Position numbers and translations under genes: made by a program. Positions 3,451 to 61,588 of a stretch of DNA of 64,000 nt are shown piece after piece. Source of the stretch: Bacillota bacterium (GTDB lineage Bacteria > Bacillota > Dehalobacteriia > UBA4068). Numbering within the stretch: the first letter of the stretch is position 1; every line of letters starts with the position of its first letter. The notes under the pieces are model-generated. The model did no database searches and had not been told where the DNA came from. It saw only the letters and a list, made by a program, of their open reading frames with translations. The stretch lies in the NCBI GenBank assembly GCA_050942825.1, contig JBMNOA010000004.1:357-64356 (forward strand), read 5' to 3'.

Positions 3451-3483
3451 TTCACCTCCGTTATTATAGAATAAAAACATTGC

Positions 3484-3706
3484 CGAAAAAAATAAAATCG
3501 AGCGGAAACTCGATTTTAGAATACACGATGCAGGGCAAAAAGTTTGACTTTTTGCTCACAAATATATCATTTATATATAATAAAAAGATTTACCTCTTTA
3601 TAAATCAAAATAACTATATATATAAATAATGCATTCTGCTGCATCATAATCTTTAAGAATTCACAAAGAATTCCTCAAAGAACTTACTCTAAAATCACTT
3701 CCTAAC
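3484..3706 (-). ncRNA. Candidate structured sRNA or leader RNA upstream of rny
   Basis: Consensus promoter upstream, several nested stems, and a terminal TAAAATCGAG/CTCGATTTTA hairpin followed by U7 (see findings). Confidence 0.5.
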
Positions 3707-3712
3707 ATATCT

Positions 3713-3741
3713 ATTTTATTATCTTAGGATATATTTGTCAA
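3713..3741 (-). promoter_or_regulatory. Sigma-A promoter driving the rny upstream RNA
   Basis: TTGACA-17 nt-TAAAAT on the minus strand. Confidence 0.8.
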
Positions 3742-60508: not shown

Positions 60509-61588
60509 TTAAGGCATCGTTTTTTCGTAAATCTGTAAAAATTCTTTATATGACAAAACAAATTTTTGTGAGTCTTTGGCGATAGCAATAGCATTTTCCG
60601 AGAGTTTATCATCAGCATGAAAACGCGGCCTTTGGCCTGATTTTTCTTGCAGCCAGAGCTTATTGCTTTTGTGATGCCCGATAGATTCCGGTAATTGACG
60701 CTTAGGTATATAGATATCTTGCGGCCAAAAGCCGGCCAAAGTGATGGCAGTTATTAATTGTTGTTTTTTCAAAGCGCTGCGCACCAAATGACCAAAAGCA
60801 GCATCATAGGGGCCCTCAAGAAGGGCTGCCTCTACATCAGCAGAGGGATTTATACCTATACGGATCACAGGTATATCGGCTAAAGCAAAAATTGCTGCCA
60901 TATCCCTACACACCCTGACAGCCTCTTCGACGGTCTGCGGCCTATATTGGCCATTCTCATAAAGAAGAGCTAAAGGCGTATGACGCAAAACCAAAGTAGG
61001 ATAAATTCTCACCATAGCAGGTCTAATCTTGACAGCCTCCCTGGCGGAAAAAAGGCTTTGTTTTATATCATCCTGGGGCAATCCCGTCATCAGTTGTAGG
61101 CCCAGAATAAAACCTTTTTCCAGGATAAGATGAGCGGCTCTTTTAGCAGTATCGCTGTCATATCCTCTACCGGAGGCTCGTAAAACCTGATCGGAAAAGG
61201 ACTGTATGCCCAGTTCAATGGTATTGACTCCATAGGCAGCAAGAAAATCCAGCTCTTGTTCATCTATATAATCAGGACGGGTGGAGATACGGATTGACTT
61301 GATACGTCCATCAGCCAAATATGGCTGTGCAAATGACAAGTATTGCTCTTGTTTTTGTTTAGGCAAGGCGGAAAAACTCCCGCCATAAAAAGCTAGCTCC
61401 GGAATATCATGATCGCAGCGGGCTACAGCTTCGGCAATATCTGCTTGGTCAGGTCCTTGCTTGTAGCCGCTTATTGCCGTTTGATCACAATATATACATT
61501 GATGCGGGCAACCTTGCATAGGAATAAAAAAAGGCAAAATGGTATTTTTTGCCTTTTTTAGCATTTTACTGTTATTTATTCTTAACAT
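60509..61588 (-). CDS. Elp3-like radical SAM protein of unknown function
   Basis: GCPHQCIYC, FYGGSF, STRPD, IELGIQS, GLQLMTGLP, RIYPT. Confidence 0.85.
   Translation of the reverse strand: MLRINNSKMLKKAKNTILPFFIPMQGCPHQCIYCDQTAISGYKQGPDQADIAEAVARCDHDIPELAFYGGSFSALPKQKQEQYLSFAQPYLADGRIKSIRISTRPDYIDEQELDFLAAYGVNTIELGIQSFSDQVLRASGRGYDSDTAKRAAHLILEKGFILGLQLMTGLPQDDIKQSLFSAREAVKIRPAMVRIYPTLVLRHTPLALLYENGQYRPQTVEEAVRVCRDMAAIFALADIPVIRIGINPSADVEAALLEGPYDAAFGHLVRSALKKQQLITAITLAGFWPQDIYIPKRQLPESIGHHKSNKLWLQEKSGQRPRFHADDKLSENAIAIAKDSQKFVLSYKEFLQIYEKTMP

Follow-up and report, generated by a model that had tools for sequence, protein, structure and literature searches.

The gene rny, which encodes RNase Y, lies on the minus strand of a 64,000-nucleotide (nt) stretch of a Bacillota contig (JBMNOA010000004.1; hereafter the window) derived from a bioreactor metagenome, and is preceded there by a highly structured leader. 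We find that this leader is predicted to form either an intrinsic terminator or an antiterminator, in which the extreme 5' end of the transcript pairs with the 5' side of the terminator, and that both folds are conserved with covariation in homologous leaders; the leader is very probably a cis-acting transcription attenuator of rny. It represents a conserved, uncatalogued RNA family that is absent from Rfam and acts by a known principle, and sequence comparison finds the same design recurring before rny across many Bacillota of the Clostridia type, in leaders that differ considerably in sequence. The switch probably lets the cell tune the amount of RNase Y, an enzyme that starts most messenger RNA (mRNA) decay in Firmicutes and whose dosage affects global expression, sporulation and virulence. 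To our knowledge, B. subtilis is the only case in which the setting of RNase Y levels has been described, and what is described there concerns mRNA stability alone. We regard as likely the explanation as a whole, in which an attenuator leader reads through into rny by default and would take its input from RNA decay.

Two predicted, competing folds in the rny leader

The minimum free energy (MFE) structure of the leader is the antiterminator form, in which RNA nt 5–22 (3702–3685; GGAAGUGAUUUUAGAGUA) pair with 3523–3504, bases that make up the terminator's 5' flank, the greater part of its 5' arm, and the loop. The 3' antiterminator strand contributes UAUUCUAAAAUCG (3523–3511) and UUUCC (3508–3504) to this helix, and overlaps the 5' arm and loop of an intrinsic terminator (3518–3486) that consists of an 11-base-pair (bp) stem, UAAAAUCGAGU/GCUCGAUUUUA at 3518–3493, a UUCC loop and a U7 run to 3486, and ends 35–43 nt upstream of the rny ATG (3450). 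Antiterminator pairing takes up the 5' flank, three of the five core pairs of the 5' arm and four loop positions, and the two folds are mutually exclusive. They are also of comparable stability, at −62.4 kcal/mol for the antiterminator and −60.0 kcal/mol when the terminator is forced, a gap of 2.4 kcal/mol that makes them nearly isoenergetic. An initial annotation of this region had described the terminal hairpin and U run before the rny start, both of which are present, while the complementarity between the 5' strand and the terminator is a feature that it lacked. Across the homologous terminators, the top of the stem core, GAG, is often bulged and unpaired in the antiterminator form.

Promoter, leader and gene lie on one strand, and the terminator comes after the start site and before the start codon. 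The sigma-A-type rny promoter (3741–3713, minus strand) comprises TTGACA (3741–3736), a 17-nt spacer and TAAAAT (3718–3713), as the initial annotation had it, and matches the consensus at 11/12 positions. Spacing alone places the predicted transcription start at G3706, the G of GUUAGG, which gives a full leader of ~255 nt and a terminated RNA of ~220 nt. The leader folds with an MFE of −62.4 kcal/mol, compared with −39.3 ± 4.0 kcal/mol for 200 dinucleotide shuffles (z = −5.85, with 0/200 as good), bearing out the earlier proposal that the structure exceeds what AT-richness would produce.

Between the two antiterminator strands lie hairpin P2 (3681–3650; UCUUUGAGGAAUUC/GAAUUCUUAAAG), found both in the MFE structure and by RNAalifold, and a central long-stem domain (3648–3524) that holds a closing stem, a GCA/UGC hairpin and two arms. 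The closing stem pairs UAUGAUGCAG (3648–3639) with CUGCAUCGUG (3533–3524); the AT-rich (UA)n arm spans about 3630–3567 and has GAUUUA/UAAAUC as its inner helix, and GCAAAAAGU/ACUUUUUGC at 3555–3535 makes up the second arm. RNAalifold on the window and its two closest homologues recovers every helix that had been drawn from the sequence initially, including the upstream hairpin, which corresponds to P2, and both arms of the central domain; the 5' half of the closing stem also stands as drawn, while its 3' half, previously placed at 3534–3525, was one base off.

The (UA)n runs of the window, at 3624–3615 and 3579–3572, are two self-complementary copies that form the AT-rich arm, and two such copies are also found in close relatives, e.g., L161, L163, L081–L084 and L095 (L numbers denote the homologous rny loci collected here), with equivalent arms in these loci, in L003 and L004, and in others. 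Of the terminator-type rny leaders, 47% have a (UA)n run of at least 7, compared with 17% of the others; in the terminator type, the longest run averages 6.3, vs. 4.6 in dinucleotide shuffles. In structural terms, paired (UA)n copies would give a slippery helix.

The order in which these parts emerge was modeled by folding nascent fragments. The 5' antiterminator strand is predicted to stay mostly single-stranded until its partner gets transcribed, with a probability of being unpaired of 0.53–0.96 over nt 1–25. Stepwise folding then shows the zipper growing from nt 16–22 to nt 5–22 as RNA positions 190–204 emerge, such that outward zipping from the base of the central stem is complete before the 3' arm of the terminator is made. 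At equilibrium, the terminator core has a probability of only 0.06–0.08, which rises to 0.98 upon in silico deletion of the first 5 nt; deletion of 12–16 nt yields a terminator stem of 7–10 pairs, and deletion of at least 20 nt the full 11 pairs. In these models, the antiterminator is the kinetic and the thermodynamic default, and depends on the extreme 5' end of the RNA. In homologous leaders, the terminator and antiterminator states are 2–7.5 kcal/mol apart, and which of them is the MFE state differs from leader to leader.

Conservation and covariation upstream of rny

The window belongs to a subfamily of 15 leaders (window, L161/L162, L163–L167, L169, L170, L001, L002 and L081–L084) that share one order of parts, namely a 5' strand that starts with GUUA(A/G)G, P2, a closing stem that encloses the AT-rich and second arms, the 3' strand, and the terminator; the leader of L168 is related but has a different terminator. 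The first four nucleotides, GUUA, are kept in 13 subfamily members, though the window's antiterminator leaves them unpaired. From lineage to lineage, the central domain differs widely in both length and sequence, and it has no conserved junction nucleotides. A blastn search of the element against 80 genome loci returned only short matches, in L001, L002 and L004, and is uninformative because the primary sequence diverges too fast. The RNase Y of the window is ≤77% identical to that of any GTDB species representative, while metagenome assemblies hold RNase Y proteins of 79–90% identity to it. Upstream of one subfamily leader, in L170, an annotated 32-residue gene (1692–1790) overlaps the recX stop and extends into the recX–rny intergenic region, ending near where the rny leader begins; Pfam gives no match to it, and the gene call may be spurious.

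We find that the 5' end and the terminator of a given leader match each other far better than they match those of other leaders. In this test, the first 45 nt were paired with a region comprising a 20-nt flank, the 5' arm and the loop, and partners were then permuted among leaders. For 29 leaders from many lineages, the mean cognate duplex energy is −19.2 kcal/mol vs. −12.8 ± 0.7 kcal/mol for permuted partners (0/20,000 permutations), and in almost every one of these leaders cognate pairing extends into the arm or the loop of the terminator; within the subfamily (n = 15), the corresponding means are −16.4 and −11.0 kcal/mol (0/20,000). When every 30-nt segment of a leader is compared, the one that pairs best with the terminator region begins in the first 15 nt of the transcript in 22/32 leaders, where about one in eight is expected, and in the window itself the best partner among 145 sliding windows lies at offset 4.

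Compensatory changes are evident at the level of individual pairs. The terminator loop and its 5' partner read UUUCC:GGAAG in the window, CUUCC:GGAAG in L161, CUUUC:GAAAG in L163, UUUGC:GCAAG in L001, UUUAAC:GUUAAG in L164 and L166, and UUUUUAAC:GUUAAGGN in L002 and L081–L083. Between the window and L161, UGAUUUUAG:CUAAAAUCG is replaced by UGGUUUUAG:UUGAAACCG and the 3' arm of the terminator changes from CUCGAUUUU to CUCGGUUU, a three-way change (A to G in the 5' strand, U to C in the 5' arm of the terminator, and A to G in its 3' arm) of the kind that a strand switching between two partners would show.

A test that does not involve fitting to the structure used a sequence-only MAFFT alignment of three leaders, those of the window, L161 and L163. 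Over the full antiterminator structure, 93.2% of cells are paired vs. 40–53% with slid partners, and 9 pairs are compensatory vs. 0–3 in the slid controls, with 0/500 shuffles reaching any of these measures; the antiterminator helix accounts for 17 pairs, 96% paired and 3 of them compensatory, and the top pair of the second arm is U-A, C-G and A-U in the three sequences. A covariance model built from this trio finds full-length leaders in L170 (E = 3e-5), L165, L084 and L167, and more weakly in L083 (E = 0.14), and all full-length matches lie upstream of rny. When counts are limited to the eight full-length rows, with partial and wrong-strand matches excluded, the antiterminator helix is 89.8% paired vs. 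27–58% with slid partners and has compensatory changes in 9/17 pairs vs. 0–3, P2 is 97.8% paired (6/10 pairs compensatory), and the closing stem is 89% paired (5/6 pairs compensatory). Close homologues carry compensatory changes in every helix, and the covariation for which the initial annotation had suggested collecting homologous intergenic regions is found along with cognate-specific pairing. Column-wise covariation on plain MAFFT alignments of 10–15 leaders failed, because the register between the 5' strand and the terminator loop differs among subclades, and we relied instead on duplex-energy permutation and on the three-sequence and covariance-model alignments; RNAalifold on ungapped mini-constructs returned no structure.

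Beyond the subfamily, the promoter is the most widely kept feature. A TTGAC[AT]-16-18-TAnnnT promoter is found upstream of rny in 138/160 loci from genomes and metagenomes, and a near-consensus promoter in 10/10 further contigs, which identifies 3741–3713 as the rny promoter and a long leader as a general trait. In the 147 leaders analyzed, the distance from promoter to start codon is 38–540 nt (median 158), and the content of the leader is specific to the lineage. An intrinsic terminator is present 24–105 nt upstream of the start codon in 33 leaders; cultivable organisms with leaders of the terminator type include Thermincola, Anaerosalibacter sp. ND1, Anaerophilus nitritogenes and Desulfitobacterium sp. 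THU1. The strict core pattern CYGRG..CYCGR has 15 matches ≤140 nt upstream of rny, as opposed to ~9 independent matches in the other ~1.7 Mb on both strands, an enrichment of ~100-fold; the window stem, UCGAG..CUCGA, falls just outside this strict pattern, and a looser CGRG..CYCG core picks out one of 38 terminator-like hairpins in the window, that of the rny leader. The terminator core C(C/U)G(A/G)G..CUCG(G/A), at 3512–3499 in the window, is kept in ~20 loci from distant lineages beyond the needs of pairing, and might be a recognition site for a protein or a nuclease. Within the 64-kb window, neither the 5' motif nor the terminator has a second copy, so the element occurs there once, and a regulon of similar elements within the window was rejected.

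In the window, the gene order on the minus strand is recA (5352–4306), recX (4293–3754) and rny (3450–1918; 510 residues, with the Pfam domains RNase_Y_N, KH and HD), followed by ymdB and spoVS. The recX–rny intergenic region spans 303 nt, with the recX stop codon 13 nt before the −35 box, and a scan of the window finds no terminator between recX and rny besides the leader hairpin. The interval from 3485 to 3445 holds a spacer, the extended Shine-Dalgarno sequence GGAGGUG (3459–3453) and the rny start, ATGATG (3450–3445). The Shine-Dalgarno sequence is almost universal, present as GGAGGTG in 115/147 rny leaders, in line with the observation that the ribosome-binding site of B. subtilis rny is unusually strong.

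A proposed mechanism and its alternatives

We propose that transcription starts at the strong sigma-A-type promoter just after recX, and that the polymerase would then produce, in order, the AU-rich single-stranded 5' segment, P2, the multi-branched stem and the terminator, ~40 nt before the rny ribosome-binding site. As the flank, 5' arm and loop emerge, they would be captured by the 5' segment, and the central stem would zip outward into the antiterminator before the 3' arm exists, such that the default, as seen in silico, would be read-through into rny-ymdB. If the 5' segment were removed, occupied or mis-folded, the terminator would form and a ~220-nt transcript would end at 3486–3492.

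The natural input may be the RNA-decay machinery of the cell, acting by RNase Y cleavage in the exposed AU-rich 5' segment beside P2 or by 5'-to-3' trimming by RNase J. RNase Y is proposed because the 5' strand is AU-rich, exposed and adjoins a stable hairpin, which matches the substrates described for this enzyme, namely single-stranded AU-rich sequence close to secondary structure (PMC10303841); in S. aureus, the RNase Y cut lies 6 nt upstream of double-stranded RNA (PMC5449607). A 5' exonuclease is proposed because the 5' strand is the first RNA that such an enzyme would remove. Excess decay capacity would then destroy the antiterminator strand and turn rny transcription off, in a form of negative autoregulation in which the time required to transcribe the central domain would serve as a timer for decay of the 5' strand. 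That the input is RNase Y or 5'-end decay is a tentative assignment, to which we give somewhat less than an even chance, and its main rival is an RNA-binding protein or an RNA. The wider generalization is more doubtful still, although possible, i.e., that the rny leader of many Clostridia-type Bacillota senses RNA-decay capacity and responds at the level of transcription, with RNase Y or RNase J attacking its ~25-nt 5' end and the loss of even a few 5' nucleotides blocking the zipper antiterminator so that the terminator forms.

Several considerations weigh against parts of this scheme. A search for RNA sequencing runs of the window, Desulfitobacterium L029 and Thermincola L004 returned none. 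The start site, termination and read-through are predictions, and the energy models on which the folds depend are less reliable for such AU-rich RNA; the antiterminator is so strongly favored that the terminator might seldom be used. The alignment from the covariance model was fitted to the structure, and the shuffle tests are inflated by relatedness among the sequences. Many lineages (Clostridium sensu stricto, Bacilli-like, Acetivibrio) have rny leaders that lack a terminator, and control of B. subtilis rny is ascribed to mRNA stability, with no terminator mentioned (PMC10303841). It is also questionable whether RNase Y, a membrane-bound enzyme, could act within the few seconds taken to transcribe ~200 nt, and the input could be a different protein, a small RNA, or nothing.

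Among the alternatives, one accepts the switch and changes its input, to another trans-acting factor that binds the conserved 5' segment or the terminator hairpin, with an RNA-binding protein, a small or antisense RNA, and a small ligand bound by the central domain as candidates. The retention of GUUA despite its lack of a partner in the window's antiterminator would fit such a factor, as would the core CYGRG/CYCGR, kept across distant lineages more strictly than pairing requires, and there are precedents in the pLS20 attenuator, for which an RNA-binding protein or antisense RNA is likewise proposed (PMC13401043), and in the L20 leader, where attenuation is autogenous through protein binding (PMC1865079). 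The central domain is variable, however, and has none of the conserved junction nucleotides of riboswitch aptamers, the absence of a second motif or terminator in 64 kb gives no pointer to a regulon, and, with the element found exclusively at rny, the most economical candidate is the product of the gene itself. We therefore consider another factor unlikely, albeit the strongest of the alternatives. A metabolite riboswitch as the primary reading is unlikely in its own right, since the central domain is conserved neither in length nor in sequence. Leader-peptide attenuation was rejected as well: the leader contains only short, low-complexity open reading frames, and the position of the ATG at 3708–3706 reads ATG, TTG, ACG, ACA or CTG in homologues, with differing frame lengths.

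The other alternatives dispense with the switch. The initial annotation had left the choice between a leader that gates rny-ymdB and a stand-alone small RNA, and the latter, a ~220-nt RNA that acts in trans, e.g., as an RNase Y decoy, with rny transcribed independently, draws on the strong promoter and strong terminator that surround a highly structured RNA; the terminated product would in any case exist as a by-product of attenuation. Independent transcription of rny is difficult to place, since a promoter scan of the window finds none between the terminator and rny. The TATAAT at 3468–3463, earlier named as a potential start for rny, has no −35 box and would initiate inside the Shine-Dalgarno sequence, and was rejected as the rny promoter. 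Moreover, the spacer from terminator to start codon varies from 24 to 105 nt, lineages without a terminator show the same promoter as the only recognizable one before rny, and a constitutive small RNA would have no use for a conserved antiterminator. We regard this alternative as improbable, and as marginally less credible again a passive region, in which a recA-recX terminator and an AT-rich spacer carry 5'–3' complementarity of no regulatory role. Here the lack of another terminator between recX and rny means that recA-recX transcripts end at the hairpin or read through it, and AT-rich sequence does form helices easily. A plain recA-recX terminator is contradicted by the fold statistics against dinucleotide shuffles (z = −5.85), by the compensatory changes in every helix, and by cognate-specific pairing with a 5'-end bias across lineages with unrelated sequences. 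In addition, L169 has an amidohydrolase gene upstream in place of recX and retains an intact leader and terminator, which indicates that the element belongs to rny.

As to identity, a permissive scan of the region with Rfam 15 (E up to 10) gives best scores of 11–22 bits vs. thresholds of 40–130, with no match from the 6S RNA, Clostridiales-1, T-box or riboswitch families, in agreement with the initial view that the element is not a T-box, a riboswitch or 6S RNA; its novelty stands. Leaders of 20 homologous loci likewise give nothing relevant in Rfam, and at gathering thresholds the whole 64-kb window has no match, not even a transfer RNA or riboswitch. In the literature searched, no rny leader is described as having a terminator/antiterminator.

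A switch before rny across many anaerobic Bacillota would provide a concrete and easily mutated handle on RNase Y homeostasis in Clostridia, bring the zipper-type attenuator, recently described in conjugative plasmids, to a core gene of the chromosome, and add a new RNA family to genome annotation. Should the leader prove to sense decay, it would be the first attenuator with a ribonuclease acting on the nascent 5' end as its input, and would place a second mechanism of RNase Y homeostasis, different in kind, beside the one that B. subtilis exerts through mRNA stability.

Related systems and other elements in rny leaders

Use of the extreme 5' end of a transcript as an antiterminator strand that pairs with the 5' arm of a downstream terminator is known from B. 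subtilis pyrG, where the strand is made by reiterative addition of G at the start site, sensitive to cytidine triphosphate. By comparison, the window strand is encoded in the genome and does not start with a homopolymer.

The closest known mechanism is that of the pLS20 zipper attenuator, cATT, in which the antiterminator forms by default (PMC13401043, NAR 2026). Both have a long, imperfect central stem between an upstream segment and an intrinsic terminator, in both the upstream segment is complementary to the 5' stem of the terminator and to its loop and extends the central stem into the antiterminator, and in both the conformations are nearly isoenergetic. cATT resides on pLS20 and other conjugative plasmids of Gram-positive bacteria, upstream of conAn1 in a conjugation operon, whereas the window element is chromosomal, in the order recX-rny-ymdB, before a housekeeping ribonuclease gene. 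The upstream strand of the window is moreover the extreme 5' end of the transcript, and P2 is interposed, so that the antiterminator closes a three-way junction rather than extending a single stem coaxially. In cATT, a weak upstream stem-loop, SL-2, withholds the antiterminator strand when formed (PMC13401043); the window has no clear counterpart, its 5' strand being predicted to be unpaired at 25/26 nt, whereas a weak SL-2-like hairpin is predicted in L161, L163 and L084. Compared with cATT by description rather than by sequence, the window element is zipper-like in its working and lies outside the cATT family by context and layout.

B. subtilis rny (ymdA) itself has a leader, first noted in PMC2965217, that resembles that of the window in the gene it precedes, a sigma-A promoter, considerable length (164 nt vs. 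~255 nt), an AU-rich 5'-proximal segment beside a stem-loop and a very strong Shine-Dalgarno sequence, and in both the purpose would be RNase Y homeostasis. B. subtilis RNase Y autoregulates partly via cleavage of this leader, the cuts being clustered in its first 50 nt, which are AU-rich, and control is exerted on mRNA stability, with cuts in the untranslated region (UTR) and the first ~100 nt of the open reading frame followed by RNase J1 trimming (PMC10303841). The window differs in having a terminator and a competing antiterminator as conserved features. blastn shows no convincing similarity of the window leader to genome loci outside its own subfamily, and Bacilli-like metagenome leaders carry motifs that differ from those of the window.

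The L20 leader of the B. subtilis infC-rpmI-rplT operon offers an autogenous parallel, as it is also ~200 nt long with two exclusive folds, one of them a terminator, and the operon's own product provokes premature termination (PMC1865079). There, a ribosomal protein binds a mimic of ribosomal RNA, whereas the window has no evident mimic and the proposed input is nucleolytic removal of a strand. E. coli rne likewise pairs a major decay-initiating endoribonuclease with a structured leader, RNase E controlling its own synthesis via a structured 5' UTR (cited in the discussion of PMC10303841), but this control is post-transcriptional, by faster decay with no terminator/antiterminator, the enzyme is unrelated, and the window gives no Rfam match to the rne leader.

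Other elements are seen in rny leaders of different lineages. A motif, TTGAAAAnTnAATA, lies directly upstream of the rny Shine-Dalgarno sequence, in the last ~40 nt, in 23 loci that represent several families of Clostridia, including Tissierellia, Acetivibrio and Sedimentibacter, most of these loci lacking a terminator (L011–L013, L022, L030, L031, L036, L038, L041, L060, L061, L063, L065–L067, L069, L070, L076, L077, L080, L133, L147 and L149), and could be another lineage-specific control element of rny. In 22 Bacilli-like metagenome loci (within L085–L114), a hairpin CCCAAG-N-CUUGG directly precedes the rny Shine-Dalgarno sequence, and the same loci have a 5' hairpin whose loop, UUCCUUCCAA, resembles an anti-Shine-Dalgarno sequence, which suggests, from sequence features, that control of rny in this lineage may be translational rather than transcriptional.

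Two further motifs are 5'-terminal. GGUGUAUC occurs just after the start site in seven loci (L005, L007–L010, L017 and L050), and GGGAGAAA(A/C)UAG, which also pairs with the flank of the terminator, in six Thermincola/Peptococcaceae-type loci (L003, L004, L018, L052, L088 and L120). In one of the latter, the Peptococcaceae metagenome-assembled genome L052, two TwoAYGGAY RNAs (RF01731; 124–282 and 5736–5893, minus strand) flank the rny locus. Elsewhere in the window, 61533–61553 forms a perfectly symmetric hairpin, GGCAAAA...UUUUGCC, with a U run on each strand, as a bidirectional terminator would have.

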